From assembly GCF_028369095.1 (NCBI RefSeq), contig NZ_JAQNDN010000024.1:693253-757252 (forward strand): 64,000 nucleotides of DNA, given 5' to 3'. Shown here one piece after another: positions 5,718 to 55,243 of the stretch. How positions within the stretch are numbered: the first letter of the stretch is position 1; every line of letters starts with the position of its first letter. Below the pieces are notes generated by a model. It did not search any database. It saw only the letters and a program-made list of their open reading frames with translations, and was not told the DNA's origin. The translations under genes and the position numbers were made by a program. Source of the DNA: Nannocystis radixulma. Its GTDB lineage: Bacteria; Myxococcota_A; Polyangia; Nannocystales; Nannocystaceae.

Positions 5718-5724
5718 GGCGACC

Positions 5725-16435: not shown

Positions 16436-17054
16436 GGACAGTACCTCACTGTGTTTGAGTCCCAATGTCAAGGTCATTGCATCGTTTTCCGTGCTGCGCA
16501 CGGTGCGCGATTCGGGCCCAGGAGCCCGCTCCGGCCCCGTCTGGCACGCATGAACGCTCACGCCCAGCGCGGTCGCCCGGCGTGACGATTCGTCGATCAT
16601 TGCACTGCGAGGCCTCCCGGGCCCACCCGAGGGGAGCGCCTTCCCAGAGCACCTGATGGGGCGCTCGTATGGTTCGGCGGCGCCCGTGTGACACGAGTCT
16701 GATCGTCGCCGGCGGGCCCCTCGATCTGCTCACGTTGGTGTGCGGGATCGAGGCCATGCGCGGCTCCCAGCACGGGTCGCGCAGATCCGCGCGGTTCGTC
16801 GCCAATGCCTGGAGATGTGCGCTCGAGACCTCGGCCATCGACGGTGAGTCGATACACGTGAAACGTCTTGTTCGCCGAAGGTCGGCGCTGCGACGACTCC
16901 GCGTCTGCCGGTTGGGGACACCGCACGTTTCAACGACCCTGATCACCGTCGTCGTTCGCCAGACGTCGCGCACCGGGTGTTGACGGCGACCGGCCGACGT
17001 GCGAGCGTCCTGCCGCTCTCCACATCTGGATTCCGACCGATCAGGAACACTTCC

Positions 17055-17285
17055 ATGCGCGACGACGAGACGGATGACACCCGGCGTTACGAGGTGGTTT
17101 TCAACCACGAGGAGCAGTACTCGATTTGGCCCGCCGACCGCGAAGTGCCGGTCGGATGGCGCAAGGCGGGCAAGAATGGCACCAAGCAAGAGTGCCTCGC
17201 CTACATCGATCAAGTGTGGACCGACATGCGGCCGCTGTCCTTGCGGCTCGCCATGGCAAAGGCCGCGGAAGACCAGAACGGCTGA
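17055..17285 (+). CDS. MbtH-like protein (NRPS A-domain chaperone)
   Basis: [39 protein letters not shown]...[18 protein letters not shown] shows the invariant MbtH signature NxExQYSxWP...GW...CL.YI...WTDxRP. The start is the internal ATG at 17055, preceded by an AGGAAC RBS. Confidence 0.85.
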
Positions 17286-18996: not shown

Positions 18997-19710
18997 TCAG
19001 ACCGCATGGCTGGGTGGAAACGCTGCGTCGAGGACCGCCTCCCAGTTCACCGGTAGTTGCGGGACGCCGGCGGCGGCGATCCGCGCCGTGAGCTCGTCGC
19101 GGGCGGTGATGCCGAACCTCCGGACGTAGGCCGACAGATACTCCGGGCGGGAGAACAGGAACATCAGATCGGTGAGCTGCATCGGCCGAATCACCAGCAT
19201 CGGGTGCGGTGCTTCGAGCGGGCGATAGTCGGGGTTGTGCAGGCCGGGCTCGAGGCAGCCGGGATAGAATTGGCCGATCATCAGACCCCGGGCGGTGATC
19301 TCGGGCTTCAGCGCCTCTTTCACGGGATCGATGAACCGCGGCCCCCCGTCGTTCGGCAACTCGGGAAATAGCGTCAGGATGGCCCGGAACTCGCGGCCCA
19401 TCCCGGTGGTGGGGAGCTCCGTGGGAAAGCGTGCCACCAGCGCGCGCATCACCGACTCCATGGCGGCGGGGCGGAGCTCGCCCTCGTACACATGAAAGCG
19501 GATCGATCGGAAGCGGTTCAGGCCGGGCTCGACAAAGGGACACACGGACCCCTTGCGACCGATGATCGGGTTCGGCCTGGAGATGAACGTCCTGAGCCAC
19601 GTCCGCACCTCCAGCAGTTGCGCGCGCGCAGCTGCCGGGAGGCCGGCGCTCTGCTCCTCGAGCTGCTCGGCGCATAACAGCCGAGCTTGCGATGGATCTG
19701 TCAATTCCAA
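18997..19710 (-). CDS. Conserved hypothetical protein (237 aa), translationally coupled to the NRPS 3' end
   Basis: Its start overlaps the NRPS stop by 10 nt. Single-Cys motifs GSVCPFVEPGL and GQFYPGC are present. I cannot assign a family by eye. It is a candidate tailoring, precursor-supply or release factor. Confidence 0.5.
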   Translation of the reverse strand: MELTDPSQARLLCAEQLEEQSAGLPAAARAQLLEVRTWLRTFISRPNPIIGRKGSVCPFVEPGLNRFRSIRFHVYEGELRPAAMESVMRALVARFPTELPTTGMGREFRAILTLFPELPNDGGPRFIDPVKEALKPEITARGLMIGQFYPGCLEPGLHNPDYRPLEAPHPMLVIRPMQLTDLMFLFSRPEYLSAYVRRFGITARDELTARIAAAGVPQLPVNWEAVLDAAFPPSHAV

Positions 19711-22700
19711 GACGTGTCCTCCGTTGCGATGAGTCGCCGCAGCGACGAGAGGAACGCTTCCGCGAGCCGCTCGATCGTCGAGGTCTCATGGACAGCGCTG
19801 CTGAAGCTCCAGCCGAGCCGCAGTCGCCCGTCCACCACGATGCAGCTCACCACGAGCTCATGATAAAGCGCCATGTTGGGGCTGATGCTCGTATGCCCCG
19901 TCCCGTCGAATGACCAGGGCGAGCCTGCCTCGTACTGCCCGAGGTAGTTGAACACCACCGGCATCGGTACGGACAGCGACGCGCGTACGTTCGCGTCCGG
20001 ATGTGCATACCGCAGCCAGCCGTATCCGAGGCCCCGGCCGGGCACGGATCGCAGCTGCTCTTTCACGTCCTTCAGCAGCACCGCAGGGTCGCAGCCCGGC
20101 AGCACACTCAGCCACAGCGGAAACAGCGACGAGAACCATCCCATGGTGCGGGACACGTCCAGGTCTGCCACGACAGGCTCGCGACCGTGGTGCTGCAGCG
20201 CCACGCAGACCGTATCTGTCCCGGAGGCGCCGCTCAGCGCGGATGCGAGGGCCGACAGCAGGACGGCGTCGATCTCCGTTCCCTGCGTCGAGCCCACGGC
20301 GCGGAGGAGTGCGCTGGTGTCTGCCGGCGCGAGCTCCACCTCCACCGTGCGGCTGTCGCCGAAGGTCCCCGGCGCGCCGTCACGATCTCGCACGATCGGA
20401 GTCATGCGACGAGCGCACTGCGCCTGCCAGTACTCGAGCTCCTGCGACAGACCGCCGCCGGCGATGAACGCGTGCAGCCGCTCGGACCACTGGCGGAGGG
20501 ACGTCGTCTTGGGCCCGAGCTGCGGCGTCCGCCCGGCGAGGAGCGCATCGCAGGTGTGCTGCAGGTCCTCGCACACGATTCGCCACGACAGGCCGTCCGT
20601 GATGAGGTGGTGCAGGACGAGGACCAGCTGCGCGCCGCCTTCGCCCAGATCCAGCCAGGCAGCGCGGCAGATCGGGCCGCTGGACAGATTCATGCCTCGT
20701 TGCAGCCGCGCCACTGCCTCGGCCGCCGCGGCGTCGCGGGCCGGGCGATCCAACGCCGACAGATCGACCCGCTCGAGCACGATGGTCGCCCCCGCCTCGT
20801 GCTCCTGAACCCACCCGGAGCCGCTGCGACGGTACCGCAACCGCACCGCGTCATGCTGCTCCGCGACGATCCGCAGCGCCTCCGCGGCGATCTCGGGCGA
20901 GAGCGCGGGCGGCGGCGTCCAGCGCATCGCCGGGCAGTAGTGATGCGCGTCCACGGGGTCCCCATCGAGGAACCAGTGCTGGATCGGCGTCAGCGGCACC
21001 GTCCCGCGGACGGCTTCCTGCTCCGCCAACACGGCGCTGTCTCGGCGCACCACCAGCGCCAGCTCGGCCACCGTCTGATGCGTGAACATGTCGCGCGCCG
21101 TGAGATGGAGGCCGGCTCGCTTCGCGCGACCGATCACCTGGATCGCCAGGATCGAGTCCCCCCCGAGCGAGAAGAAGTTGTCGTGGATCCCGAGCGGCGA
21201 GCGCTGCAGCACCGCCGACCACAGCTCGGCGAGCACGCGCTCGACCTCGGTCCGCGGCGCCACGCAGGACGTCTCGACCGCGTCGCGCGTCGCGTCGGGC
21301 GGCGGAAGGGCCTTGCGGTCCACCTTGCCGCTGGGGCTCAGCGGCAGCGCCGTGAGCCGCACGAACAGCGAGGGGACCATGTACGTCGGCAGCGCGGCCC
21401 CGAGGTGCTCGCGCAATGCATCGTCGGTGCATCCGCTGTCGCCGGGCACCACGTACGCGACCAGGCGCCTGTCACCGGGCGCAGGTTCCCACACGACCAC
21501 CGCGCACGCTCGCACGCACGGGTGCGACGACAGCACCGCCTCGATCTCCCCGAGCTCGATGCGGAAGCCGCGGATCTTGACCTGGTGATCGATGCGCCCG
21601 AGAAACTCCAGCGCTCCGTTCGCGTCCCAGCGGACGAGGTCGCCCGTGCGGTACATCCGCGCCCCGGGCACGGCGGAGAACGGGTCCGGTACGAAGCGCT
21701 CCGCCGTCAGTGCGGGCCGGCCCAAATAGCCGCGCGCGAGCCCGTCGCCCCCGATGTACAGCTCGCCCGGGATGCCCACCGGCGTGGGCCTCAGGTTCTT
21801 GTCGACCACGTGGAGCTGCGTGTTGGCGATTCCTCGACCGAGCCGGACGGGGCTCCGTCCGGAGTCGACGCGAGAGAGCGCGGACCAGATCGTCGTCTCG
21901 GTCGGCCCATACACGTTCCACACCGGGGATGCCCTGCGCGCCAGCTCGACCGCCAGATCCGGCGTCATCGCCTCCCCGCCGCACAGCACCTGCAGCGGCC
22001 TCTCACCCGTCCAGCCTGCGTCCAGCACCATGCGCCAGGTCGCCGGCGTCGCCTGCATCATCGTCGCGCGATCGAGGGCGCTCACCAGCGCTTCGCCGTT
22101 GCTCGCGTCGTCGCGGGACGCCAGGTGGATCGCGGCCCCGCGGATCAGGGGCATGAACAGCTCGAGTCCAGCGATGTCGAACGACATCGAGGTCACGGCC
22201 AGCAGCGCGTCCCGGGGCCCGATCCGCGTCTGCTCGGCGAAGGAGTGCAGCAGGTTCGTCAGCGCGGCGTGCAGGATCTGGACGCCCTTGGGCCGCCCCG
22301 TCGAACCCGACGTGTAAAGCACGTAGCTCGCGTGGTCCGGCCCCACGGCGACTGCGAGGGACGTGCGCGGCTGCTGCCACACGGGCGCGCCCGCGTCGAG
22401 GTGCGCGGTCACGAACTCGTGCGGCGGAAGGCTGTCACGCAGGCGCGCCTGCGTGAGCAGCACGGCGGGCCGCGCGTCCGTCAGCATGAATGCCAGCCGC
22501 TCTTGCGGATAGCTCGGGTCGAGCGGCACGTAGGCCCCGCCCGCCTTCAGGATCCCCAACAGCCCCACCACCATCTCGAGCGACCGCTCGACGCACAGCG
22601 CCACCAGCACCTCCGGGCCGACGCCCAGGCCGCGCAGGTGATGGGCCAGCTGGTTCGAGCGCTCGTCGAGCTCCTGGTAGGTCAGCTGCTGTTCGCCGAA

Positions 22701-25700
22701 CACCAGCGCCACCGCGGCCGGCGTCCGCCGGGCCTGCGCCTCGAACAGCTCGTGGATGCACCTGTCTGCGGGATAGGCCGCCGCCGTGTCGTTCCACGCC
22801 GCGAGCTTCGCCTGCTCCGCCGCCGTCAGGAGGTCCAGCTGCGACAGGCGCTTGTCCGGGTGGAGCACCCCGTCCTGTACCAACACCTGCAGGTGCCTGC
22901 CGAGTCGCTCCACCGCGCCGGCGTCCACGCGGCTGGTATCGTAGGTCAGGGAGAATTCGGTCCCCTCCGCGTCATGCAGCACCCCGAGCGCCAGGGCCTG
23001 CTTCGCAGTCACCACGCCGGTGGGCACGCCGTCGAGGAGCGGTGACCAGCCGGCCACGGCGCGGGTCGTCGGCGGCGTCACCTCGAAGAAGGTCACGTCG
23101 AACAGCGGATTCTCGCCGGCCTGCCGCGACAGCCCCTGATCCTGCACGACGACGTCGAACGGCAACGCCTGGTGCTCGTAGGTCTCCAGCGCCGTCCGCC
23201 GCGCCCGGGCGAGCAGCTCGCCGAACGTCGGATCGCCCGAGAGGTCGGTGCGCAGCACCACCGTGTTCGTGAAGAACCCCAGCAGATCGGCCGTGCCCGG
23301 CACCTCGCGGTTCGCAATCACCGCGCCGATCCCGAAGTCCTGCTGGCCGCTGTACCGCGACAGCACCGCCGTAAGGGCGGCATACCAGGCCATGAAGGGT
23401 GTGCATCCGTGGGCCCGCGCCAGCGCCTGCAGCCCGCGGCTCGCCGTCAGCGGGACGCGAAGCGCGACGCTCGCTTCGACGCCGGGGCCGCGCGCCGGAG
23501 CGGCGCGAACGATGGGCAGCTCCAGTCGGGGCACGCGCGCGAGCTTGTCCTTCCAGTAGGCCCGCGAGGCCGCGAAGCCGCCGGTCGTGAGGGCCTCCTG
23601 CTCGGCGCGTGCATGGTCCGCCAACTGGTAGGCGAGCGCCGGCAACTCCGCCGCTTCGCCGCGGCAGCACGCCTCGTACAGGCGCGAGAGCTCGGACAGC
23701 AGCACGCCGCTGGACCACTCGTCGGTGATGATGTGGTGCTGGAGGACGAGCACGACGTGGTGCTCGGCCTCCAGGCGTACGACCAGCACGCGCGTCAGCG
23801 GTCCGGTCGCGAGATCGAAGCGGGCCGCGATTTCGGCCTCCAGGTGCGCGCGCAAGGCGGCTTCCCGCGCCGCCTCCGACAGCGCCGAGACGTCCTCCAC
23901 GCGCAGGGGGATCGACACACTGTCCGCCACCCTTCGCGTCAACACGCCGTCGACCTCGGGATAGGTGGTGCGCAGGATCTCCTGCCGCTCCGCGAGCTGC
24001 TTCACGCTCTGGCGCAGCGCCGGCTCCGAGAGCGCGCCGCGGACGACGAACACGTGCGGGACCTGGTACGACCGCGCCTCGGGCGAGAGCTTGTCGACGA
24101 ACCAGATCCGCCGTTCGGTCCCCGAGAGCGCGTCGTATGCCGGCTCGGCCGCGCCGCGCGGGGAGGGAGAGAGCGCGGGCGCCGGTCGCGTCTCCGTCTC
24201 GGCCAGCAACGCCGCCAGGGCCGCCACCGTCGGCCGCTGCAGCAATGTGGCCAGAGTCAGCCCGAGCCCGAGCCTCGTCTTCACCGCAGACGCGACGCGC
24301 ACCGCCAGGAGCGAGTGGCCGCCGAGCGCGAAGAAATCGTCGTCGATGCCGATGGGCCGCACCTCGAGCAGCTCTTCCCAGATCGCCACGAGGGCGCGCT
24401 CGACCTCGGTCCGGGGCGCCATGAATGTCTCGTCCGCGCCGCGGGTCGCCTCGGGGGAGGGCAGGGCCTTGCGATCGACTTTGCCGTTGGCGGAGAGCGG
24501 CAGCGCGTCGAGGAAGACGAACGCCGACGGGATCATGTAGTCGGGCAGGTCGCTTCGCAGGTGCTCGCGCAGCACGGCCGCCGCGAGCGCGCTGTCCTTC
24601 GCCACCACGTAGGCGACGAGGCGGTTGTTCCCCGGCGTATCCTCTCGCGCGACGACGACGCACGACGCCACCGCGGCGTGCGACGAGAGGGCCGCCTCGA
24701 TCTCGCCGAGCTCGACCCGGAAGCCGCGGATCTTCACCTGATGATCGGCGCGCCCGAGGAACTCGAGCTCGCCGTCCTCGTTCCAGCGCGCGAGGTCGCC
24801 GGTGCAATACATGCGGGCGCCCGGCTCCTTCGCGAACGGATCCGGCACGAACCGCTCGGCCGTCATGGCGGGACGATTTAAATAACCGCGCGCGAGGCCG
24901 ACGCCGGCGAGGTGGATCTCACCGGGCATGCCGATGGGGACCTGCCGCTTCGCCGCGTCGAGCAGGTAGAGGCGAACCCCATGGATGGGCCGGCCGATCG
25001 AGAACCGCTCCGGGCGCGACGGATCGAACCAGGCCTGCGCGGCGAAGATGCTGAACTCGGTGGGGCCATAGGAGTTGAGCACCTGGCGGCCCTCGGCCCA
25101 CTGCGCCACGAGTGAAGGCGGCGTGCTGTCGCCGGCGAGGGTGATGTGGCGCAGCGCCGGCGCGCGGCAGCGGAGCACGCGCAACATCGCGGGCGGGATG
25201 AAGGAGAAGGTGATGGCGCGGTGTTCGAGGCACTCGGCGATGCCCTCGACGGCGTCGTAGGCGTTGCTGGGCAACACGCAGGTTGCGCCGTTGCACAGCG
25301 AGAGCATCCAGTCGACGATCGCCCCATCGAAGGCGATCGCGGCGCTCAAGAGGATGCGATCGCTGGGATGGACGACGATGTGCTGGCGCTGGAACGCGAC
25401 GCGGGCGGCGAGCCCGCGATGCTCGTTGATCACCGGCTTGGGCTTGCCCGTCGAGCCCGAGGTGAACACGACGTAGTTCGCGTGCTCGAGCGTCACGCCG
25501 CTCACGGGCGGCGTGATCGGTTGCGAGGCCCACTGCGCCGCATCGGCATCGAGCCGCACCACCGTCACGCCCGGCGCCGAGAGCCGGACGTCCGCGTGCG
25601 TCAGCAGCACCGGCGCCTCGGCCTCGGCCAGCAGCAGCGAGAGCCGGTCCGGCGGAGACGACGGGTCGAGCGGTACGAACGCGCCTCCCGCCTTCAGGAT

Positions 25701-28700: not shown

Positions 28701-31700
28701 GGGCGCATCGAGAAGCACGGTCACGACCGCGTGCGCCGGAAGGCCGTCTTGCAGTCGTGCCTGCGTGAGCAGCACGGCGGGTCGGGCGTCCGTCAGCATG
28801 AAGGCCAGGCGCTCGCGCGGATAGCTCGGGTCGAGCGGCACGTAGGCGCCGCCCGCCTTGAGGATCGCCAGCAGCCCCACGAGCATCTCGAGCGACCGCT
28901 CGACGCACAGCCCGACCAGCACCTCCGGCCCCACGCCCAGCCCGCGGAGGTGATGGGCCAGCTGGTTCGAGCGTTCGTCGAGCTCGCGGTACGTCAGCTG
29001 CTTCTCACCGAACACCAGCGCCACCGCGTCCGGCGTCCGCGCGACCTGCTCCTCGAACAGCTCGTGGATGCACCTCGCCGGGGGATACGCCACCGCCGTG
29101 TCGTTCCACGCCGCGAGCTGACGCAACTCCGCCGCCGTCAACAGGCCGAGCTCCGCCAGGCGCCTGTCCGGGTGCGCGACCATGTCGAGGAGGACGGTCC
29201 GCAGGTGCCCCCACAGCCGCTCGACGTCTTCGCCGCGAAGCGCTGCGGGTTCCCACATCCAGCGCAGGTCGATGGTCGTTCCAGCCGCCACCGTGATGGC
29301 GAGCGGGTAGCTCGTCTGCTCGAACGCCTGGAAGTTCTCGATCGGCAGGACCTCGGCCTGCTGCGCCGCTTCGTCCACCGGGTAGTTCTCGAACACGAGG
29401 AGCGTGTCGAACAGCGCGCGACCTCCACCCACCGCGCTCGCGCGCTGCACCTCGTACAGCGGGGTCGCCTCGTGGACGCGCAGCTCGACCTGCTCGGCTT
29501 GCAGCCGCTGCAGCCATTCGACCACGCCCTCCGAGCCGGACCACCGGGCCCGCAGCGGCAGCGTGTTGATGAACAGGCCCACCATCCGCTCGATGCCGCG
29601 GATCGGCGCGCTGCGACCTGCCGTCGTCATGCCGAAGACGACATCCGTCCGCCCCGTGATACGGCCGAGGATCTGCGCGAGCGCCCCTTGCACCACCGTG
29701 TTCAGGGTCAGCCCGTGCCGCCGCGCGAAGGCCGTGACCGCCTCGGTCTCGGCCGCGGTCAGCGAGGTGTCACGCTGTGCGTGCTCCCGCGTCGCCTCCG
29801 CGGGCGGCGGGAACGGCAGCCGCGTCGGCTCCTCGACGCCGTCCAGGTACTCGGCGAAGAACGCCGACGACGCCCTGTGGTCTCGCGTCGCGAGCCAGGC
29901 GATGTACCGCTCGTAGGCCACCGGCTCCGGCAGCGCGAGCGGTCGGCCGCCGCGGTGGGCAGCATAGGCGGCCTGCAGCTCTCCGAGCACGACCGGCATC
30001 GACCAGCCGTCGGCCAGGATGTGATGCGTCGTCTTCAGCATCCACGTCCGGCCTCCGGGCATGCGCACGAGCACGACCCGCGCCAGCGGGGCCCGCCCGA
30101 AATCGAAGCCGGCCGCCCGTTCCTCGCGCCGCAGGGCCTCCCACCGCGCCTCCGCCTCGACCGCGTCCAGCGCGGACCAGTCGTGCGTCGGCATCGCGAA
30201 GGCGACGCTCCGCCGCACCACCTGCAGCGGCTCCGGGACGCCCTGCCACAAGAAAGACGTCCGATACACCGCATGACGCGCGAGCACGGTCTTCCACGCG
30301 CTCTCGAGCGCCGCGGCGTCCACGTCGCCTCCCAGCTGCAGCGCGAGCTGGACGGTGTAGGTCGGCGAGTCCGGCTCGTTCAGGGCGTGGAACAACAGCC
30401 CCGCCTGTAGCGGCGAGAGCGGGTAGACGCTCTCCACGTCGCGCGAGGCCGCGAACAGTCCGTCCAGGGCCTGCTGCCCGAGCCGCGCGAGCGGGAAGTC
30501 CGAGGGCGTGTAGCCGAACGCCTCGCTCGACGTGCAGTGAGCGATGAGTCGCCGCAGCGAGGCGACGAACCGAGCGGCGAGCCGCTCCACCGTCGCGCTG
30601 TCGTGGGTCGCCGAGCTGTACGTCCATTCGAACCGCAGCCGTCCTTGCCACACGCCGCCGTTCACCGCCAGCGCGTGCCACAGCTCCATCCGCGAGCTCG
30701 TGGTCCTCCCCGTCGACTCCGCCGCCGGTCCGAGCATCCCCCGGCCCTGCGCCTCCATGTCGAACTGCCCGAGGTAATTGAACACCACCGGCGGATCCAC
30801 CGCGAGTGCGGCGCGCACCGCCTCGTCCGGGTGCGCGTAGCGCAGCCAGCCGTATCCGAAGCCCCGGTTCGGCACCGATCGAAGCTGTTCCTTGACCCCC
30901 TTCAGCAGCGCAGCAGGATCGTCGGTCCCCGGAACGGTCAGCCACACCGGAAACATCGACGTGAACCACCCGACGGTGCGGGACACATCGACGTCCTCGA
31001 TCAGCGTCTCGCGCCCATGCCCTTCGAGCGTGACGCACACCGTGTCCGTCGTGCAGAACCCGCTCAGCGCCGCTGCGAGCGCCGAGAGCAAGACATCATT
31101 GATCTCGGTGCGGTAGGCCGCGCTCACGTCGTGAAGGAGCGCCCGGGTCTCTGCCTCGGACAGCTCCACGTCCACCGTGCGGCTGTCTCCGACCGTGCCC
31201 GGCGCCGCCTCGTGGTCCCGCGGCAGCGGCGTGATGCCGCGCGCGCATTGAGCTCGCCAGAATCCGAGCTCCTGCGACAGGCCGCCGGCAGCGACGAATG
31301 CGTGCAGCCGCTCCGACCACTGTCGGAACGAGGTCGTCTTGGCCGCGAGCTCCGGCGTGCGTCCAGCCAGCAGGGCCTCGCAGGCGCGCTCGAGGTCCTC
31401 GTGCAAGATCCGCCACGACACGCCGTCGACCACGAGGTGGTGCACGACGAGCAGCAGCCGCGCGCCCTCCTCGCCCAGATCCAGCCACGCGGCGCGGGCC
31501 ACCGGGCCCGCGGACAGCGACAGGCCGCTCTGCAATGCGTCCGCCGACACCTCCACGGCCGCCCTGCGTACGTCGGGCGGCACCGTCGAGAGGTCCATCC
31601 GCTCGAGCGGCAGCGCGACCTCTTCCGCGTGGCTCTGCACCCACCCGGATTCGGTATGATCATACCGCAATCGCAGCGCGTCGTGCTGCCGCAATACGAC

Positions 31701-34700
31701 CTGCAGCGCCCCGGCCACCAGCGCGGGCGACAGCGCGGACGACGGCGTCCACATACAGGCCTGATTGAAGTGGTGCGCCTCTTCGGGGTTCGTGCCCAGG
31801 AACCACTGCTGGCTCGGCGTCAGCAAGGCCGCGCCGGTCACCGCCTGCTCGGCCACGGCTGCGCTCGATCTGCGCGCCACCTGCACCAGCTCCGCGACCG
31901 TCTGGTGCATGAACATGTCGCGCACCGTCACGTGCAAGCCGGCTCGCTTGGCCCGCCCGACCACCTGGATCGCCAGGATCGAATCTCCGCCCAGCGAGAA
32001 GAAGTTGTCGTGGATCCCCACCGACGAGGCGCGCAGCACCTCCGACCACACCTCCGCGAGCGCTCGCTCCGCTTCCGTGCGTGGCGCGGCGTACGAGGTC
32101 TCCGCGGCCTGCCGCGTGTCTTTTGGAACAGGCAGGGCCTTGCGATCGACCTTGCCGTTGGCGGACAGCGGCAGCGCGTCGAGGAAGACGAACGCCGACG
32201 GGAGCATGTAGTCGGGCAGGTCGCGTCGCAGGTGCTCGCGCAGCGAGCCCACGGTGAGCGCGCCATCCTTCGCCACCACGTAGGCGACGAGGCGCGGGCT
32301 CCCCGGGGTGTCCTCTCGCGCGACGACGACGCACGACGCCACCGCGGCGTGTGACGAGAGGGCCGCCTCGACCTCGCCGAGCTCGACACGGAAGCCGCGG
32401 ATCTTGACCTGATGATCGGCGCGGCCGAGGAACTCGAGCTCGCCGTCCTCGTTCCAGCGCGCGAGATCGCCGGTGCAATACATGCGGGCGCCGGGCTCCT
32501 TCGCGAAGGGGTCCGGCACGAATCGCTCGGCCGTCATGGCGGGCCGACTCAAATAACCGCGCGCCAGGCCGACGCCGGCGAGGTGGATCTCACCGGGCAT
32601 GCCGATGGGGACCTGCCGCTTCGCGGCGTCGAGCAGGTAGAGGCGAACCCCATGAATGGGCCGGCCGATCGAGAACCGCTCCGGGCGCGACGGATCGAAC
32701 CAGGCCTGCGCGGCGAAGATGCTGAATTCGGTGGGGCCATAGGAATTGAGGACCTGACGGCCCTTGGCCCACTGAGCCACGAGTGCGGGCGGCGTGCTGT
32801 CGCCGGCGAGGGTGATGTGGCGCAGCGCCGGGGCGCGGCAGCGGAGCGCGCGCAACATCGCGGGCGGGATGAACGAGAAGGTGATGGCGCGGTGTTCGAG
32901 GCACTCGGCGATGCCCTCGACGGCGTCGTAGGCGTTGCTGGGCAACACGCAGGTGGCGCCGTTGCACAGCGAGAGCATCCAATCGACGATCGCGCCGTCG
33001 AAGGCGACCGCGGCGCTGAAGAGGATGCGATCGCTGGGATGGACGACGATGTGCTGGCGCTGGAACGCGACGCGGGCGGCGAGCCCGCGATGCTCGTTGA
33101 TCACGGGCTTGGGCTTGCCCGTCGAGCCCGAGGTGAACACGACGTAGTTCGCGTGCTCGAGCGTCACGCCGCTCGCGGGCGGCGTGATGGGTTGCGAAGC
33201 CCACTGCGCCACATCGACGTCGAGCCGCACCACCGTCACGCCCGGCGCCGAGAGCCCGACGTCCGCGTGCGTCAGCAGCACCGGCGCCTCGGCCTCGGTC
33301 AGCAGCAGCGAGAGCCTGTCCGGCGGAGACGACGGGTCGAGCGGCACGAACGCGCCTCCCGCCTTCAGGATCGCGGCCAGACCCACCACCATGTCGAAGG
33401 ACCGCTCGACACAAAGGGCCACGCGGACCTCGGGCCCGACGCCGAGCGTGCGCAGGTGGTGCGCGAGCTGGTTGGCCTGCGCCTCGAATTCCCCGTAGCT
33501 CAGCTGCTGCCCGTCCTGCTCGAGCGCGACGGCCTGCGGTGCCCTGACCGCCTGCTCGGCGATCAATTCGTGGATGCACCGGGCGGCAGGATCGATCGGC
33601 GGCGTGTCGTTCCACGCCGTGAGCTTCTCGGTCTCCTCGTCGGTCAGCAGCTCCAACTGCGACACCCGCCTGTCCGGGTGCGCAGCCGCGTCAATCACCA
33701 GAGTCTGCAAATGCCCGCACAGGCGCTCCGCCGCCGTTCGCGACACGCGCGTCGTGTCGTACAGGACCTCGACGACGGTCCCCTCGACCGTGTGCTGCAC
33801 GGTCACGGCCAGCGCGTTCTTGGCGGTCGTCACGCCCTGCGGCACCGCCCCGAGCCGCGGTGACCAGCCGGCCGCTGCCGTCGGCGGCGTCACCTCGAAG
33901 AAGGTCACGTCGAACAGCGGATTCTCGCCGGCCTGCCGCGACAGCCCCTGATCCTGCACGACGACGTCGAACGGCAGCGCCTGATGCTCATAGGCATCGA
34001 GGGCAGTCCGCCGCGCCCGCGCGAGCAGCTCGTCGAACGTCGGATCGCCCGAGAGGTCGGTCCGCAGCACGACGGTGTTGGTGAAGAACCCCAGCATCGC
34101 CTCGGTCCCGACGATCTGGCGATTCGCGACCACCGCGCCGAGCCCGAAGTCCTGCTGGCCGCTGTACCGCGACAGCACCGCCGTGAGGGCGGCATACCAG
34201 GCCATGAAAGGGGTCGCGGCATGTTCGTGGGCGAGCGCCTGCAGTTGGCGGCTCGTCTCCGGCGATAGCCGGAGCGAGACGTGCCCTTCGGGTCCCGAGA
34301 CCGCTCCCGCAGCGGGAGCGACGATCGAGAGGTCGAGCCGCGGTACGTCGGAGAGGGCCTCCTTCCAGTGGGCCCGAGACGCCGCGAGCCCGTCGCCCGC
34401 GAGCGCCGACCGCTCTGCGTGCGCATAATCCGAGTACTGGTAGGCGAGGGCAGGCAGAGCGAGCGTCTCCCCGCGGCACGACGCTTCGTACAGCGACGAG
34501 AGCTCCGCGAGCAGCAGCCCCCAGGACCACTCGTCGGTGATGATGTGGTGCTGATGCACGACGACGACGTGCCGGTCCTCGGCTGTCTTTACGGCCAGGA
34601 CACGGGTCAGCGGCCCACGCTCCAGGTCGAAGCGGCCCTTCACCTCCGCGGCGAGCATCGCCTGCAACGCCGCATCGCGCTCCGCGGCGGGCAGCGACGA

Positions 34701-36959
34701 GACGTCCTCCACGCGGATCGGGATCTGCACGTCGTCGGACACTTCTCGCCGCGGCGTGCCGTCCACCTCCGGATAGGTCGTGCGAAGGATCTGGTGGCGC
34801 AATGCCAGCGCGCGCACGCTCGCCTCGAGCGCCGGAGCAGAGAGCGCGGACGCCACCTCGAACACGTGCGGGATCTGGTACGACCTCGCCTGGGGCGACA
34901 GCTTTTCAAGGAACCAGATCCGCCGCTCCGTGCCCGACAGGCCCACGAACGGCGCCTCGCCGTCCGCTCGCGGCGAGAGGCCGATCTGCGGCCGCTCCGC
35001 TCTCGTGTCCCAGAGAGCCGCCAGCGCCTCGATCGTCGGATTGCGAAACAGCGCGGCCAGGCTCGGCGCGCCCCCGAGTTGCGCCTGGATGGCGGATACG
35101 ACGCGAAAGGCGAGGAGCGAATGACCACCCAGCAGAAAGAAATTGTCGCTGACGCCGATGGGGCGGACCTCGAGCAGCTCTTCCCAGATGGCCACGAGGG
35201 CGCGCTCGACGTCGGTCCGCGGGGCCACGTAGGTCTCTGCCGAACCGCGGGTCGTTTCGGGGGAGGGCAGGGCCTTGCGATCGACCTTGCCGTTGGGGTT
35301 CAGCGGCAGGGCGTCGAGGCAGACGAACGCCGAGGGGACCATGTACTCGGGCACCCTCGCGCCGAGCCACGTTCGCAGCTCGTTCGCAGTGGCGTCGTCG
35401 CCGACCACGTAGGCCACCAGCCGCTTGTCGCCGGCCGCGTCTTCCCGGGCCACGACCACGCAGTCGCGCACCGAAGGGTACGCCGCGAGTGCGGCCTCGA
35501 TCTCGCCGAGCTCGATGCGGAAGCCGCGGATCTTGACCTGGTGGTCGATGCGGCCGAGGAACTCGAGCGCGCCGTCGTTGCGAAAGCGCGCCAGGTCGCC
35601 GGTGCGATACATGCGTGCGCCGGACTCGGGCGCGAACGGATCGGGCACGAATCGCTCTGCCGTCAGCCCGGGGCGGCCGAGGTAGCCGCGTGCGAGCTGC
35701 ACACCCGCCAGATACAGCTCTCCGGCGACGCCGACGGGGACGGGGCGAAATGCCGCGTCGAGCACGTAGGTGCGGGTGTTGTCGATCGGCCGTCCGATCG
35801 GCACCGGCCCCGTCTCCTCGGCCCGGCAGGCGTGGCTCGTCACGTCGATCGCGGCTTCGGTCGGACCGTAGAGGTTGTGGAGCTCGCCGCGGCTGCCCGC
35901 ATACCAGGCCGCCCGCAATTGCCCCGACAACGCCTCGCCGCTGGCGAAGACGTGGCGCAGCGACGCGCGCTCCCGCGGCTCCGTCGCCGCCAGGAACACG
36001 CCGAGCATCGACGGTACGAAATGCGCCACGGTGACGCCGCGTGCCGCGATGAGGGCCGCGAGGTAGCGCGGGTCCTTGTGTCCCTCGGGCGCGGCGATCA
36101 CCATGCGGGCGCCCTCGAGCAGCGGCCACCACAGCTCCCAGCCGGACACGTCGAACGACAGCGGCGTCTTCTGCAGGATCGCGTCGCTCGCGTTGAGGCC
36201 GTAGGCCCGCTGCATCCAGCGCAGGCGGTTGTAGAGCCCGCGATGGGTGTTGAGCACGCCCTTGGGCCGCCCCGTCGAGCCCGACGTGTAGATGACGTAG
36301 ATCGCGTGATCCGGGCCGACGTGGACCGCAGGGGACGTACGCGGCAGGTGCTGCCACGCGGGCGCATCGAGATGCACGACCTCCACCTCGTGCGCCGGAA
36401 GGCTGTCACGCAGGCGTTCCTGTGTGAGCAGCACGGCGGGCCGTGCGTCCGTCAGCATGAAGGCCAGGCGCTCGCGCGGATAGGTGGGGTCGAGCGGCAC
36501 GTAGGCGCCGCCCGCCTTGAGGATCGCCAGCAGCCCCACGAGCATCTCGAGCGACCGCTCGACGCACAGCCCGACCAGCACCTCCGGCCCCACGCCCAGC
36601 CCGCGGAGATGATGGGCCAGCTGGTTCGAGCGCTCGTCGAGCTCGCGGTACGTCAGCTGCTGGTCGCCGAACACCAGCGCCACGGTGTCCGGCGTCCGCG
36701 CGGCCTGGTCCGCGAACAACTCGTGGATGCACCTCGCCGGGGGATACGCCACCGCCGTGTCGTTCCACACCGCGAGCTGACGCAGCTCGTCCGAGGCGAG
36801 CAGCGGCAGGTGCCCGATCGGGCTGTTCGAACCGGCCACGGCGGCCCAGAGGAGCACCTCCCCAGCGTCGGGGCTGCCTGCATCCTGCTGCGCCGCGACA
36901 TTCTGCTCCGACCTCGGCTCGATCCCCCGAACGTCCCGGCTCTCGTCGTGCATGCTCAT
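19701..36959 (-). CDS. Non-ribosomal peptide synthetase, 5 modules, 5752 aa: A-T | C-A-T-E | C-A-T | C-A-T | C-A-T-E, with no TE domain
   Basis: Five A domains carry the motif series LTYxEL, SGSTGxPKG, FDxS, NxYGPTE, GELxIGG, YRTGDL, GRxDxQVKIRGxRIELGEIE and NGKVDRKAL. Five T domains are present (LGGHSL x3, LGGDSI x2). Four C domains have HHxxxDxWS; three read HHIITDEWS (LCL-type) and one, after the E domain, reads HHILADGWS (DCL-type). Two E domains start PLTP(S/I)QxWF and carry HHLVVDGVSW or HHLITDGLSW. Stachelhaus-style codes by hand alignment to GrsA: A1 and A3 give DVWHFSLIDK (Ser); A2 and A4 give DGVFTASIFK (unassigned, nearest to Tyr-like DGTITAEVAK); A5 gives DILQLGVIWK (Gly). An AGGAA RBS lies upstream of the start at 36959. 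Confidence 0.95.
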   Translation of the reverse strand: MSMHDESRDVRGIEPRSEQNVAAQQDAGSPDAGEVLLWAAVAGSNSPIGHLPLLASDELRQLAVWNDTAVAYPPARCIHELFADQAARTPDTVALVFGDQQLTYRELDERSNQLAHHLRGLGVGPEVLVGLCVERSLEMLVGLLAILKAGGAYVPLDPTYPRERLAFMLTDARPAVLLTQERLRDSLPAHEVEVVHLDAPAWQHLPRTSPAVHVGPDHAIYVIYTSGSTGRPKGVLNTHRGLYNRLRWMQRAYGLNASDAILQKTPLSFDVSGWELWWPLLEGARMVIAAPEGHKDPRYLAALIAARGVTVAHFVPSMLGVFLAATEPRERASLRHVFASGEALSGQLRAAWYAGSRGELHNLYGPTEAAIDVTSHACRAEETGPVPIGRPIDNTRTYVLDAAFRPVPVGVAGELYLAGVQLARGYLGRPGLTAERFVPDPFAPESGARMYRTGDLARFRNDGALEFLGRIDHQVKIRGFRIELGEIEAALAAYPSVRDCVVVAREDAAGDKRLVAYVVGDDATANELRTWLGARVPEYMVPSAFVCLDALPLNPNGKVDRKALPSPETTRGSAETYVAPRTDVERALVAIWEELLEVRPIGVSDNFFLLGGHSLLAFRVVSAIQAQLGGAPSLAALFRNPTIEALAALWDTRAERPQIGLSPRADGEAPFVGLSGTERRIWFLEKLSPQARSYQIPHVFEVASALSAPALEASVRALALRHQILRTTYPEVDGTPRREVSDDVQIPIRVEDVSSLPAAERDAALQAMLAAEVKGRFDLERGPLTRVLAVKTAEDRHVVVVHQHHIITDEWSWGLLLAELSSLYEASCRGETLALPALAYQYSDYAHAERSALAGDGLAASRAHWKEALSDVPRLDLSIVAPAAGAVSGPEGHVSLRLSPETSRQLQALAHEHAATPFMAWYAALTAVLSRYSGQQDFGLGAVVANRQIVGTEAMLGFFTNTVVLRTDLSGDPTFDELLARARRTALDAYEHQALPFDVVVQDQGLSRQAGENPLFDVTFFEVTPPTAAAGWSPRLGAVPQGVTTAKNALAVTVQHTVEGTVVEVLYDTTRVSRTAAERLCGHLQTLVIDAAAHPDRRVSQLELLTDEETEKLTAWNDTPPIDPAARCIHELIAEQAVRAPQAVALEQDGQQLSYGEFEAQANQLAHHLRTLGVGPEVRVALCVERSFDMVVGLAAILKAGGAFVPLDPSSPPDRLSLLLTEAEAPVLLTHADVGLSAPGVTVVRLDVDVAQWASQPITPPASGVTLEHANYVVFTSGSTGKPKPVINEHRGLAARVAFQRQHIVVHPSDRILFSAAVAFDGAIVDWMLSLCNGATCVLPSNAYDAVEGIAECLEHRAITFSFIPPAMLRALRCRAPALRHITLAGDSTPPALVAQWAKGRQVLNSYGPTEFSIFAAQAWFDPSRPERFSIGRPIHGVRLYLLDAAKRQVPIGMPGEIHLAGVGLARGYLSRPAMTAERFVPDPFAKEPGARMYCTGDLARWNEDGELEFLGRADHQVKIRGFRVELGEVEAALSSHAAVASCVVVAREDTPGSPRLVAYVVAKDGALTVGSLREHLRRDLPDYMLPSAFVFLDALPLSANGKVDRKALPVPKDTRQAAETSYAAPRTEAERALAEVWSEVLRASSVGIHDNFFSLGGDSILAIQVVGRAKRAGLHVTVRDMFMHQTVAELVQVARRSSAAVAEQAVTGAALLTPSQQWFLGTNPEEAHHFNQACMWTPSSALSPALVAGALQVVLRQHDALRLRYDHTESGWVQSHAEEVALPLERMDLSTVPPDVRRAAVEVSADALQSGLSLSAGPVARAAWLDLGEEGARLLLVVHHLVVDGVSWRILHEDLERACEALLAGRTPELAAKTTSFRQWSERLHAFVAAGGLSQELGFWRAQCARGITPLPRDHEAAPGTVGDSRTVDVELSEAETRALLHDVSAAYRTEINDVLLSALAAALSGFCTTDTVCVTLEGHGRETLIEDVDVSRTVGWFTSMFPVWLTVPGTDDPAALLKGVKEQLRSVPNRGFGYGWLRYAHPDEAVRAALAVDPPVVFNYLGQFDMEAQGRGMLGPAAESTGRTTSSRMELWHALAVNGGVWQGRLRFEWTYSSATHDSATVERLAARFVASLRRLIAHCTSSEAFGYTPSDFPLARLGQQALDGLFAASRDVESVYPLSPLQAGLLFHALNEPDSPTYTVQLALQLGGDVDAAALESAWKTVLARHAVYRTSFLWQGVPEPLQVVRRSVAFAMPTHDWSALDAVEAEARWEALRREERAAGFDFGRAPLARVVLVRMPGGRTWMLKTTHHILADGWSMPVVLGELQAAYAAHRGGRPLALPEPVAYERYIAWLATRDHRASSAFFAEYLDGVEEPTRLPFPPPAEATREHAQRDTSLTAAETEAVTAFARRHGLTLNTVVQGALAQILGRITGRTDVVFGMTTAGRSAPIRGIERMVGLFINTLPLRARWSGSEGVVEWLQRLQAEQVELRVHEATPLYEVQRASAVGGGRALFDTLLVFENYPVDEAAQQAEVLPIENFQAFEQTSYPLAITVAAGTTIDLRWMWEPAALRGEDVERLWGHLRTVLLDMVAHPDRRLAELGLLTAAELRQLAAWNDTAVAYPPARCIHELFEEQVARTPDAVALVFGEKQLTYRELDERSNQLAHHLRGLGVGPEVLVGLCVERSLEMLVGLLAILKAGGAYVPLDPSYPRERLAFMLTDARPAVLLTQARLQDGLPAHAVVTVLLDAPAWQHLPRTSPAVHVGPDHAIYVIYTSGSTGRPKGVLNTHRGLYNRLRWMQRAYGLNASDAILQKTPLSFDVSGWELWWPLLEGARMVIAAPEGHKDPRYLAALIAARGVTVAHFVPSMLGVFLAATEPQERGSLRHVFASGEALSGQLREAWYAGSRGALHNLYGPTEAAIDVTSHACRPEETGPVPIGRPIDNTRTYVLDAAFRPVPVGVAGELYLSGVQLARGYLGRPGLTAERFVPDPFSPESGARMYRTGDLARFRDDGALEFLGRIDHQVKIRGFRIELGEIEAALAAHPSVRDCVVVAREDATGDKRLVAYVVGDDATANELRAWLGARVPEYMVPSAYVCLDALPLNPNGKVDRKALPSPEATRGADETFVAPRTDVERALVAIWEELLEVHPIGMDDDFFALGGHSLLAVRVVSAVKARLGLGLTLATLLQRPTVAALATLLAEIETRPAPVAALSPSPRGAAEPAYDGLSGTERRIWFVDKLAPEARSYQVPHVFVVRGTLSEPALRESVKRLAERQEILRTTYPEVDGVLTRRVADSVSIPLRLEDVSALSQSAREFALRAHLEAEIAVPFELASGPLTRVLVVRLEAEHHVVLVLQHHIITDEWSSGVLLSELSRLYEACCRGEAAELPALSYQFADHARAEQEALTTGGFAASRAYWKDRLAGAPRLELPIVRTAPGRGPEASVALGVPLEASRALQALARDHGCTPFMAWYAALTAVLSRYSGQQDFGLGAVIANREAPGTADLLGFFTNTVVLRTDLSGDPTFGELLARARRTALEAYEHQALPFDVVVQDQGLSRQAGENPLFDVTFFEVTPPTTDAAAGWSPLLDAVPQGLATAKNALAVSVQHAAEGTVVEVLYDTTRVSRTAAERLCGHLKTLVTDAAAHPDRRVSQLDLLTDEETEKLAAWNDTPRTDPAARCIHELIAEQAARAPQAVALEQDGQQLSYGECEAQANRLAHHLRTLGVGPEVRVALCVERSFDMVVGLVAILKAGGAFVPLDPSSPPDRLSLLLAEAEAPVLLTHADVRLSAPGVTVVRLDADAAQWASQPITPPVSGVTLEHANYVVFTSGSTGKPKPVINEHRGLAARVAFQRQHIVVHPSDRILLSAAIAFDGAIVDWMLSLCNGATCVLPSNAYDAVEGIAECLEHRAITFSFIPPAMLRVLRCRAPALRHITLAGDSTPPSLVAQWAEGRQVLNSYGPTEFSIFAAQAWFDPSRPERFSIGRPIHGVRLYLLDAAKRQVPIGMPGEIHLAGVGLARGYLNRPAMTAERFVPDPFAKEPGARMYCTGDLARWNEDGELEFLGRADHQVKIRGFRVELGEIEAALSSHAAVASCVVVAREDTPGNNRLVAYVVAKDSALAAAVLREHLRSDLPDYMIPSAFVFLDALPLSANGKVDRKALPSPEATRGADETFMAPRTEVERALVAIWEELLEVRPIGIDDDFFALGGHSLLAVRVASAVKTRLGLGLTLATLLQRPTVAALAALLAETETRPAPALSPSPRGAAEPAYDALSGTERRIWFVDKLSPEARSYQVPHVFVVRGALSEPALRQSVKQLAERQEILRTTYPEVDGVLTRRVADSVSIPLRVEDVSALSEAAREAALRAHLEAEIAARFDLATGPLTRVLVVRLEAEHHVVLVLQHHIITDEWSSGVLLSELSRLYEACCRGEAAELPALAYQLADHARAEQEALTTGGFAASRAYWKDKLARVPRLELPIVRAAPARGPGVEASVALRVPLTASRGLQALARAHGCTPFMAWYAALTAVLSRYSGQQDFGIGAVIANREVPGTADLLGFFTNTVVLRTDLSGDPTFGELLARARRTALETYEHQALPFDVVVQDQGLSRQAGENPLFDVTFFEVTPPTTRAVAGWSPLLDGVPTGVVTAKQALALGVLHDAEGTEFSLTYDTSRVDAGAVERLGRHLQVLVQDGVLHPDKRLSQLDLLTAAEQAKLAAWNDTAAAYPADRCIHELFEAQARRTPAAVALVFGEQQLTYQELDERSNQLAHHLRGLGVGPEVLVALCVERSLEMVVGLLGILKAGGAYVPLDPSYPQERLAFMLTDARPAVLLTQARLRDSLPPHEFVTAHLDAGAPVWQQPRTSLAVAVGPDHASYVLYTSGSTGRPKGVQILHAALTNLLHSFAEQTRIGPRDALLAVTSMSFDIAGLELFMPLIRGAAIHLASRDDASNGEALVSALDRATMMQATPATWRMVLDAGWTGERPLQVLCGGEAMTPDLAVELARRASPVWNVYGPTETTIWSALSRVDSGRSPVRLGRGIANTQLHVVDKNLRPTPVGIPGELYIGGDGLARGYLGRPALTAERFVPDPFSAVPGARMYRTGDLVRWDANGALEFLGRIDHQVKIRGFRIELGEIEAVLSSHPCVRACAVVVWEPAPGDRRLVAYVVPGDSGCTDDALREHLGAALPTYMVPSLFVRLTALPLSPSGKVDRKALPPPDATRDAVETSCVAPRTEVERVLAELWSAVLQRSPLGIHDNFFSLGGDSILAIQVIGRAKRAGLHLTARDMFTHQTVAELALVVRRDSAVLAEQEAVRGTVPLTPIQHWFLDGDPVDAHHYCPAMRWTPPPALSPEIAAEALRIVAEQHDAVRLRYRRSGSGWVQEHEAGATIVLERVDLSALDRPARDAAAAEAVARLQRGMNLSSGPICRAAWLDLGEGGAQLVLVLHHLITDGLSWRIVCEDLQHTCDALLAGRTPQLGPKTTSLRQWSERLHAFIAGGGLSQELEYWQAQCARRMTPIVRDRDGAPGTFGDSRTVEVELAPADTSALLRAVGSTQGTEIDAVLLSALASALSGASGTDTVCVALQHHGREPVVADLDVSRTMGWFSSLFPLWLSVLPGCDPAVLLKDVKEQLRSVPGRGLGYGWLRYAHPDANVRASLSVPMPVVFNYLGQYEAGSPWSFDGTGHTSISPNMALYHELVVSCIVVDGRLRLGWSFSSAVHETSTIERLAEAFLSSLRRLIATEDTSWN
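24371..36842. repeat. Two ~4.8-kb near-identical direct repeats inside the NRPS gene, plus a third partial copy of the C domain
   Basis: A1-T1-C2-A2 (about 32040-36842) and A3-T3-C4-A4 (about 24371-29174) are ~96% identical at protein level. Duplicated six-frame ORFs recur at a 7665-7671-nt offset, for example 32549 vs 24878 and 33905 vs 26240. C5 repeats C4 at a 3147-nt offset (23093 vs 26240). Confidence 0.85.
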
Positions 36960-41670: not shown

Positions 41671-41844
41671 CGGGGAGAGCACGGCGGGACGATACCGCAG
41701 AAAATCGGCCCCGGGCCGGACGGGGCGCGGGCGCGGCCGCGCAGGTCGGCGAGGCCCGCGATGGCGGGCGCGCGAGGGGACGCGAGCGACCGGCCAGCGC
41801 GGTCGCGAGTCGTCGCGACGTAGAAGGTGACGCGCGTGACAGGT

Positions 41845-55242: not shown

Positions 55243-55243
55243 C

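Follow-up and report, generated by a model that had tools for sequence, protein, structure and literature searches.

The DNA considered here is a stretch of 64,000 nucleotides from Nannocystis radixulma (contig NZ_JAQNDN010000024.1, positions 693,253 to 757,252; the whole stretch is called the window below). It has a G+C content of about 70% and carries a gene for a five-module nonribosomal peptide synthetase (NRPS), which ends in an epimerisation (E)-like domain and has no release domain. The gene (19701..36959, minus strand) is a single open reading frame (ORF) of 5752 codons, encoding 5752 amino acids (aa), with a G+C content at third codon positions (GC3) of 0.90. Because an in-frame stop lies about 50 codons 5′ of the ATG, no N-terminal condensation (C) domain is hidden in front of the first adenylation (A) domain. 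A Pfam scan of the ORF returned the families AMP-binding, AMP-binding_C, PP-binding and Condensation alone (E-values from 1e-126 to 1e-203), with no Thioesterase, NAD_binding_4 or other release family. Core-motif mapping, in which T denotes a thiolation domain, gave the order A1-T1-C2-A2-T2-E2-C3-A3-T3-C4-A4-T4-C5-A5-T5-E5, with the core motifs A3, A5, A8 and A10 present five times each, GG(H/D)S five times and HHxxxD six times, as in a type I modular NRPS. Module 1 has no E domain, the enzyme has no starter C domain and no thioesterase (TE), reductase (R) or terminal C domain, and its C-terminus lies 8 residues beyond the final helix of E5. The sequence-only reading had described five modules in one gene that starts with an A domain without a starter C, and a T-E terminus without TE, R or terminal C; the ORF, the upstream stop, the Pfam scan and the core motifs confirm both descriptions. 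The features of the gene are:

19701..36959, minus strand: NRPS gene, A-T-C-A-T-E-C-A-T-C-A-T-C-A-T-E with the last E being E-like (ORF, Pfam, core motifs, orthologue P0337)
35265..36737, minus strand: A1, Ser code DVWHFSLIDK, no C domain before it (motifs, code; pocket closest to EntF and FscH)
34995..35207, minus strand: T1, GGHSL type (motifs)
33615..34946, minus strand: C2, LCL-like, active-site HHIITDEWS (motifs; top PDB matches Txo1/Txo2 and TycC)
32124..33572, minus strand: A2, code DGVFTASIFK (FDGA), proposed 6-hydroxy-Trp (code; substrate from linkage to cytochrome P422 and a partial match to a Trp code, see below)
31860..32072, minus strand: T2, GGDSI type, partner of an E domain (motifs)
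30510..31847, minus strand: E2, canonical epimerase with HHLVVDGVSW and EGHGRE, then GYTPSDFP (motifs)
29130..30452, minus strand: C3, DCL type, YPLSPLQAGLLF..., HHILADGWS (motifs)
27600..29072, minus strand: A3, Ser code, 95% identical to A1 (code, alignment)
27345..27557, minus strand: T3 (motifs)
25965..27287, minus strand: C4, LCL-like, HHIITDEWS (motifs)
24450..25892, minus strand: A4, code DGVFTASIFK, 95% identical to A2 (code, alignment)
24195..24407, minus strand: T4 (motifs)
22824..24146, minus strand: C5, LCL-like, HHIITDEWS (motifs)
21294..22757, minus strand: A5, Gly code DILQLGVIWK (code, pocket alignment)
21045..21248, minus strand: T5, GGDSI type, Ser5269, 78% identical to T2 (motifs)
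19728..21026, minus strand: E5, terminal E-like domain, HHLITDG kept, no TPSD/COM tail (full-length match to solved E domains)
20178..20195, minus strand: QHHGRE (aa 5589-5594) in place of the E4 motif EGHGRE, with Gln for the catalytic Glu (alignment)

Module duplication is visible in the pairwise identities between domains, which are 95% for A1/A3 and A2/A4, 87% for C4/C5, 78% for T2/T5 and 60% for E2/E5. E2 is canonical and is followed by the DCL-type C3, which strongly supports the prediction that residue 2 becomes D. In every orthologue, C2, C4 and C5 carry HHI(I/V)TDEWS, with Glu at the position where HHxxxDG has Gly. Assignment of these three as dual E/C or dehydrating C domains was rejected, because they have no second HH motif at the N-terminus and their top PDB matches are ordinary LCL-type domains.

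The ten-residue specificity codes were read by hand from an alignment to a fragment of GrsA-PheA, with positions 330/331 set by hand against the GPTE motif, and the pocket regions were compared separately with all solved structures. A1 and A3 share the Ser code DVWHFSLIDK, A2 and A4 share the unusual code DGVFTASIFK with motif A4 reading FDGA, and A5 has the Gly code DILQLGVIWK; the order and letters of all three codes, and the FDGA motif, are those given by the sequence-only reading. The A1 pocket is closest to those of FscH and EntF (DVWHFSLVD, Ser). The A5 pocket is closest to that of AB3403 (DILQLGVVWK from the alignment), followed by a DhbF-like protein (DILQLGLIWK), both with Gly-type codes and both presumably Gly-activating. 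A mis-called specificity of A5 had been offered as one way out of the odd pairing of Gly and E; since the A5 pocket independently matches Gly-type solved structures, this option is set aside, and the predicted Gly assignment is robust. The A2 pocket is unusual, as had been claimed, in that no solved structure is closely related to it: its top match scores 45 bits, vs. 105 and 132 bits for the other two pockets, and the Phe-activating TycA and GrsA rank next. The prediction that the NRPS assembles a pentapeptide Ser, X, Ser, X, Gly on its five modules is strongly supported. A siderophore (coelichelin-like) reading was rejected, as no N-hydroxylase or formyltransferase was found and the codes are for Ser and Gly. 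In the metagenomic protein P0085 (1799 aa), a Gly-coded module (DILQLGLIW) is followed by a terminal E domain with the canonical EGHGRE and a TPSDFP docking-type tail; thus, Gly-T-E modules recur outside the E5 lineage.

Orthologous loci were collected by a scan for E5 in one genome per species, by gene-context look-ups and by a search of representatives, and 12 related loci in 11 genomes were read. The genome scan found E5 orthologues in Nannocystis punicea, N. bainbridge, N. pusilla, N. exedens, Nannocystis sp. RBIL2, Polyangium sp. y55x31, P. fumosum, Polyangium sp. 6x1 and sp. 15x6, and two more, in Sorangium sp. So ce1036 and Polyangium spumosum, came from the gene-context look-ups. Homology searches with A5-T5-E5 and with A2 gave mostly proteins of less than 1900 aa, and the full-length orthologues came from other look-ups. 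Among them, P0337 (5717 aa) is intact, as is the NRPS copy in the window; it is 90% identical, has the same sixteen domains and starts at A1. The orthologues end 8-60 residues past the E domain, those of Nannocystis 8-20 residues past it. In N. pusilla (L001, L006; P0083, P0217, P0221) the NRPS is split into several ORFs (373, 854 and 1390 aa), and in its assemblies the ABC exporter and cytochrome P422 genes described below are fragmentary in places, which reflects either assembly indels or pseudogenisation. Judged from sequence, the window carries an intact copy of a gene cluster common to Nannocystis, Polyangium and Sorangium.

E5 matches the E domains of PvdL, TycA, BacC (bacitracin synthase 3), GrsA and TycB3 over its full length (193-283 bits) and also matches TIGR01720. 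Its top PDB matches are E domains throughout, which places it by sequence in the E clade, not with C or terminal condensation-like (CT) domains. T5, directly before it, is of the GGDSI type (FFSLGGDSILAIQ), and the second His of HHxxxD is kept (HHLITDGLSW at aa 5450); the Gly of HHxxxDG is I or A in the terminal E domains of Polyangium and Sorangium. In motif E4, E5 reads QHHGRE, whereas E2 reads EGHGRE, and the Gln is aligned under the Glu of PvdL in the HMMER alignment. The window shares QHHGRE with each of the 11 orthologous loci checked, which come from Nannocystis, Polyangium and Sorangium, whereas the internal E2 domains keep EGHGRE. Ten canonical E domains were compared residue by residue with 11 members of the E5 lineage. 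Two residues of motif E4 that never vary among the canonical domains are replaced across the lineage (E5589Q and G5590H). The same comparison shows Ala in 10/11 lineage members (D5565A) where motif E3 (DxLLxAxG) has its Asp, a residue present in 10/10 canonical domains. T5610S (core motif E5) is fixed in the lineage and V5615L is found in 10/11 members, both at canonically invariant positions; Q5343P, L5462V and Y5470C occur in 11/11 members at positions conserved in 9/10 canonical domains. A survey of motif E4 in 296 E domains, from the 270 NRPS proteins closest to E5, showed Glu at the first position in 292, the exceptions being the E5 lineage and two domains of one unrelated protein.

This Glu (E882 in TycA, E892 in GrsA) is one of two catalytic residues, and the E882A mutant of TycA lost 99.5% of D-Phe-L-Pro diketopiperazine formation (PMC8905534). 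With Gln in place of the catalytic Glu, and with motif E3 lacking its otherwise invariant Asp, the prediction that E5 is not a working epimerase is strongly supported. Moreover, Gly in module 5 would leave E5 nothing to epimerise, active or not; the Gly module is genuine, and the earlier remark that a terminal E domain has no stereocentre to act on there was well founded. E5 is nonetheless retained under purifying selection and is not decaying. Its identity between Nannocystis and Polyangium/Sorangium is 74-76% (C5, 74-77%), and its ratio of nonsynonymous to synonymous substitution rates (dN/dS) is 0.21-0.37, vs. 0.20-0.34 for the C domains.

A communication-mediating (COM) donor motif consists of TPSD and then a donor helix of 20-30 residues after the E domain. 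Within the window NRPS, E2 is followed by GYTPSDFP, where C3 begins, and proteins with a docking-type terminal E domain (P0085, P0102, P0129, P0143, P0192) carry (G)(Y/F)TPSDFP and about 20-35 further residues. Neither a TPSD motif nor a COM-donor helix was found after E5, where the window protein ends in ...LRRLIATEDTSWN and the stop codon; the tails after the terminal E domain in Polyangium and Sorangium are variable and degenerate (ETPSG...). No second NRPS gene was found, either in the 64-kb window or in the 10 kb that follow the NRPS at the 12 related loci, and the gene that overlaps the NRPS stop codon encodes a haem hydroxylase, not an NRPS. Since E5 has no COM-donor tail and no NRPS lies nearby, a missing DCL-type partner is unlikely, and the enzyme is best read as a stand-alone synthetase. 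The sequence-only reading was right that the window holds no partner NRPS, but the missing downstream partner, one of the options it listed, is not supported by these results. Its further option, an E domain repurposed for docking or release, fares better: the change from Glu to Gln in all 11 loci and the purifying selection support repurposing, whereas the lack of a COM tail speaks against docking.

The gene immediately downstream bears on the substrate of A2 and A4:

18997..19710, minus strand: DUF6875/cytochrome P422 gene (PF21780, 5.3e-50), TTG start

The overlap between its TTG and the NRPS stop is 10 nt long, and a Shine-Dalgarno sequence, GGAGGA, precedes the TTG by 6 nt. The translation contains RKGSVCP (the haem-ligand motif RxGxVCP), RPMQLTDLMF (Rx(M/L)x3Dx2F) and MIGQF (MxGxF); for the substrate motif Dx2(Q/H)x3K it has DPVKEALK, with K at the Q/H position, where Ne015 of N. 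exedens has DPVQQALK. DUF6875 proteins were recently renamed cytochrome P422 and reported to be haem enzymes with a thiolate ligand that hydroxylate N1, C6 or C7 of free L-Trp; many of their genes lie within NRPS clusters and were proposed to supply hydroxy-Trp units, and Ne015 is listed as '6-OH' (L-Trp 6-hydroxylase) in the supplement (10.64898/2025.12.11.692455). The window protein is 95% identical to Ne015 (A0A1I2HNG7, 237 aa), and A0A1I2HNG7 is 100% identical to the product of the N. exedens gene that immediately follows the orthologous NRPS. Because A2 and A4 alone have odd codes, and because the coupled P422 is 95% identical to a reported 6-hydroxylase, A2 and A4 probably load 6-hydroxy-Trp. 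The linkage to P422 thus points away from the Tyr/beta-hydroxy-Tyr codes that had been named as closest. In addition, D, G, A6, S7, V/I8 and K are common to DGVFTASIFK and the Trp code DGWAVASVCK of the calcium-dependent antibiotic (CDA) (PMC9113097), an overlap that may be taken as weak support for a Trp-type substrate. More distant P422 loci, in metagenome-assembled genomes of Phycisphaerales and Thermoanaerobaculia, comprise one without an NRPS and two with terminal modules only in their 10-kb flanks; these two have Ala- and Val-like codes and a TE.

The remaining genes of the cluster lie on both sides of the NRPS and P422 genes:

37498..39441, minus strand: multicopper oxidase with a twin-arginine signal and lipobox (DRRGFLRV...LTGCSS), directly upstream of the NRPS
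17322..18956, plus strand: ATP-binding cassette (ABC) exporter, TIGR01194 'cyclic peptide export' subfamily (SyrD/PvdE type), 334.8 bits against a cut-off of 286.2; in all related loci
17055..17285, plus strand: MbtH-like protein (ORF 16977..17285, likely ATG at 17055); in the Nannocystis loci
15896..16600, minus strand: DUF697 membrane protein, conserved cluster member
14671..15684, minus strand: Band_7/SPFH protein, conserved cluster member
13056..14663, plus strand: membrane-anchored SBP_bac_11-like protein, conserved cluster member

Despite rearrangements, one or two ABC exporters, P422 and the SBP_bac_11-like, DUF697 and Band_7 proteins are kept with the NRPS in all three genera. In Polyangium, the SBP_bac_11-like gene adjoins P422 and is merged with it in one gene call, that of P. 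spumosum (767 aa). A small ORF of about 60-70 aa, called at two related loci, travels with the DUF697/Band_7/SBP_bac_11-like set. The Sorangium cluster contains a copy of the multicopper oxidase that is 74% identical. Polyangium clusters encode a protein of 706 aa that ends in a cytochrome-c domain (weak CCP_MauG match, 26.4 bits; L003 14175..17816 in y55x31), as well as an FGE-sulfatase-like protein (110 bits) at the place that the multicopper oxidase has in Nannocystis and Sorangium. A scan of the spacer between the multicopper oxidase and the NRPS found no promoter or terminator.

Further upstream, the ORF 39880..42186 (minus strand) has 768 codons, 77% G+C, a strong GC skew, a Pro/Ala-rich product with CxxC...CxxC and a predicted membrane segment. 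It has no Pfam match and no counterpart in the Sorangium cluster, and therefore probably marks the edge of the cluster. Elsewhere in the window, 52739..62144 (plus strand) holds a separate lipid/aryl-polyene-like set with an AMP-ligase fused to a FabA/ApeI dehydratase (52789..55242), a GT2 glycosyltransferase, an LpxL-like acyltransferase, a 4HBT-domain protein, a LolA-like protein and an MMPL transporter. At 889..6867 (minus strand), two large ABC proteins, one with an N-terminal C39 peptidase domain, and an HlyD-family protein form a bacteriocin-type export system that is apparently unrelated to the NRPS cluster.

Our best explanation of the whole, to which we assign a probability of about 0.55, is a stand-alone pentapeptide synthetase that uses 6-hydroxy-Trp made by P422, followed by export and oxidation of the product, with offloading by E5 as the preferred mode of release. 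P422 would turn free L-Trp into 6-hydroxy-L-Trp, which A2 and A4, aided by the MbtH-like protein, would load, so that the chain would read L-Ser, D-6-hydroxy-Trp, L-Ser, L-6-hydroxy-Trp, Gly. The peptide would be exported via the SyrD/PvdE-type ABC transporter, and the multicopper oxidase, a lipoprotein exported by the twin-arginine pathway, would then oxidise or cross-link the electron-rich hydroxyindoles outside the cytoplasm. In Polyangium, the cytochrome-c and FGE-sulfatase-like proteins could be alternative extracytoplasmic oxidation enzymes in the role of the multicopper oxidase. We infer this sequence of export and extracytoplasmic oxidation from gene content. As to release, E5 may help either the free N-terminal amine or water to attack the Gly thioester, which is unhindered; attack by the amine would yield a cyclic pentapeptide. 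On an E-type scaffold the peptidyl carrier protein (PCP) can enter from the donor side only, which suits intramolecular release. We slightly prefer E5 as the releasing domain, because it is retained under selection although useless as an epimerase, keeps the active-site His and has a donor-only scaffold; taken by itself, offloading by E5 is a tentative proposal. The fuller version, in which E5 with its QHH cyclises or hydrolyses the Gly thioester and the exported Ser/6-hydroxy-Trp peptide is cross-linked or made into a quinone-type chromophore by the multicopper oxidase, is unlikely to hold in every part.

Several points weigh against this explanation. The cluster and the pathway are known here from sequence alone, and we know of no E-derived domain that has been shown to release a chain. 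P. spumosum (L014, WJIE01000036, 1..9186) has the same cluster with a terminal E domain that keeps both EGHGRE and the Asp of motif E3, while its N-terminal half resembles the E5 lineage. The Gln substitution is therefore typical of the lineage and not obligatory for the role of the domain; this variant weakens the case for the Q-H change as an adaptation, and simple relaxation of constraint at the catalytic residue would account for it no less well than a new function. The activity of Ne015 comes from the supplementary table of a single preprint. The specificity of A2 and A4 is drawn from linkage, not from a validated code, and the nearest non-orthologous A domains, about 50% identical, have other codes. 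The multicopper oxidase, DUF697, Band_7 and SBP_bac_11-like proteins are given their roles by co-localisation. For the Polyangium and Sorangium NRPS genes, the flanks read are those on the downstream side. Finally, for bacterial TE-less NRPSs that end in T-E and have a C-terminal Gly, a penicillin-binding-protein (PBP)-type thioesterase is the only experimentally established route (PMC7459860), and such an enzyme, encoded elsewhere in the genome, could be the releaser here as well.

Release in trans by an enzyme outside the cluster, likeliest a PBP-type cyclase resembling SurE or DsaJ, would leave E5 as an inactive, retained partner of T5. The T-E architecture, the L-Ser N-terminus and the Gly C-terminus fit the published rule for such systems (PMC7459860; PMC11601455), and the canonical terminal E domain of P. 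spumosum is in line with it. However, the conserved gene set contains no thioesterase-like gene, and at the 12 related loci it contains no beta-lactamase-fold or alpha/beta-hydrolase gene; to our knowledge, the characterised systems have the PBP-type thioesterase gene inside the cluster. The sole PBP-like gene in the window, a PF00144 ORF at 62155..63939 (plus strand), encodes a beta-lactamase/S12 D-peptidase domain at aa 281-581 of 594. Although it has a weak match to SurE (2e-10), its top PDB matches are alkaline D-peptidase and the R61 DD-peptidase, it lies 25 kb away in a lipid-type operon, behind an MMPL gene, and, since the domain ends 13 residues before the stop, it has no C-terminal lipocalin domain, which is reported to be essential for cyclisation by PBP-type thioesterases (PMC11601455). 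A GC3 frame plot suggests an internal true start for this ORF at about 62.8-63.0 kb. It appears a poor release candidate. A 4HBT thioesterase (57240..58967) and an epoxide-hydrolase-like alpha/beta hydrolase (46652..47833) were rejected as release factors, as the operons that contain them are unrelated and neither has a counterpart among the gene calls of the related loci examined. All in all, release in trans is doubtful, but about as likely as offloading by E5.

Two further roles for E5 are improbable to a similar degree. As a docking or recruitment platform, E5 would serve either as a COM-type donor to an NRPS that starts with a DCL domain and is encoded elsewhere or, like the X-domain of glycopeptide NRPSs, which acts as a recruitment platform, as a recruiter of P422 or another tailoring enzyme to the peptide on T5. 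The overlap of the haem-enzyme gene with the NRPS stop codon, the Gly-T-E module of P0085 with its canonical E domain and TPSDFP tail, and the inactive E domain on the Gly module of LgrA, which passes the chain to LgrB (PMC10510592), all favour this role, but E5 lacks the TPSD motif and donor helix, Nannocystis proteins end 8-20 residues past it, the Polyangium and Sorangium tails are degenerate, and no partner NRPS lies near the 12 related loci. On-line recruitment is also not needed, because the P422 orthologue acts on free L-Trp and pre-formed 6-hydroxy-Trp would explain the A2/A4 pocket; furthermore, docking would leave release unexplained. Alternatively, E5 might be a functionless leftover of a T-E duplication, with the Gly thioester lost spontaneously through hydrolysis or cyclisation, or by a housekeeping thioesterase. 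The duplication history is visible in the A1/A3 and A2/A4 (95%) and C4/C5 (87%) identities, relaxed selection on a Gly module would yield loss of the catalytic Glu, and P. spumosum shows that either residue is tolerated. Against a leftover, the domain persists in full in every genome, over two myxobacterial suborders, with a dN/dS (0.21-0.37) like that of the C domains, and the Q-H and A residues are fixed in 10-11 of 11 lineage members, without drift.

Among the known systems, LgrA (F-A-T-C-A(Gly)-T-E) likewise has a Gly module followed by a C-terminal E domain, described as inactive (PMC10510592), and its T domain before the terminal E is also of the E-partner type. LgrA, however, hands its chain to LgrB in a pathway that ends in a reductase, whereas the window NRPS has no partner, no TPSD/COM tail and no release domain in the cluster. 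The desotamide/surugamide NRPSs (SurE, DsaJ, Ulm16, WolJ systems) are likewise TE-less with a T-E end, a C-terminal Gly or D-residue and an N-terminal L-residue, and their peptides are Trp-rich, as is predicted here; in that family a stand-alone PBP-type thioesterase cyclises the chain (PMC7459860), whereas no gene for a beta-lactamase plus lipocalin protein lies in or next to the window cluster. Furthermore, the desotamide family is found in Streptomyces, whereas the present system is myxobacterial and its terminal E domain lacks the catalytic Glu. The arrangement has more precedent than had been implied: a terminal E domain on a Gly module is known from LgrA, and desotamide-type NRPSs have a T-E end with a C-terminal Gly.

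Fungal CT and bacterial terminal C domains release chains. Like E5, they sit after the last T domain in the place of a TE, have a donor-PCP site alone and keep the active-site His. In contrast, E5 belongs by sequence to the E clade, unlike the CT and C clades, and release by E5 is hypothetical. In pyoverdine maturation, export by PvdE is followed by the action of periplasmic oxidases. There, too, the NRPS is accompanied by genes for a TIGR01194 exporter and for redox enzymes that act outside the cytoplasm; the likeness is one of logic and gene content, and the enzymes are not homologous one for one. The window P422 carries RxGxVCP and the substrate motifs MxGxF and RxMx3Dx2F in addition to its 95% identity to Ne015, and differs from the published motif in SBR2 (DPVKEALK, with K for Q or H); the preprint characterised the enzyme alone and does not describe the NRPS, its product or the remaining cluster (10.64898/2025.12.11.692455). 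In the literature searched, on the codes, on release by terminal E domains and on myxobacterial 6-hydroxy-Trp peptides, no description of the cluster or its product was found; the combination of a stand-alone TE-less NRPS, a conserved altered terminal E domain, P422 and an exported oxidase has not been described there.

NRPS release without a TE, R or terminal C domain is understood for few cases, and this cluster is a clean, conserved test case: it has a single synthetase and a Gly thioester, the active-site changes of the terminal E-like domain are defined, and P. spumosum provides a natural revertant. It also ties the cytochrome P422 Trp hydroxylases to a concrete assembly line, and DGVFTASIFK becomes a candidate code for 6-hydroxy-Trp that would improve specificity predictors if confirmed. 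The predicted product is probably redox-active, and the three genera in which the cluster is widespread, Nannocystis, Polyangium and Sorangium, are mined for natural products. If the proposed explanation is true, E5 would be the first epimerisation-derived offloading domain, and the cluster would define a new class of myxobacterial natural products built on P422-derived 6-hydroxy-Trp.

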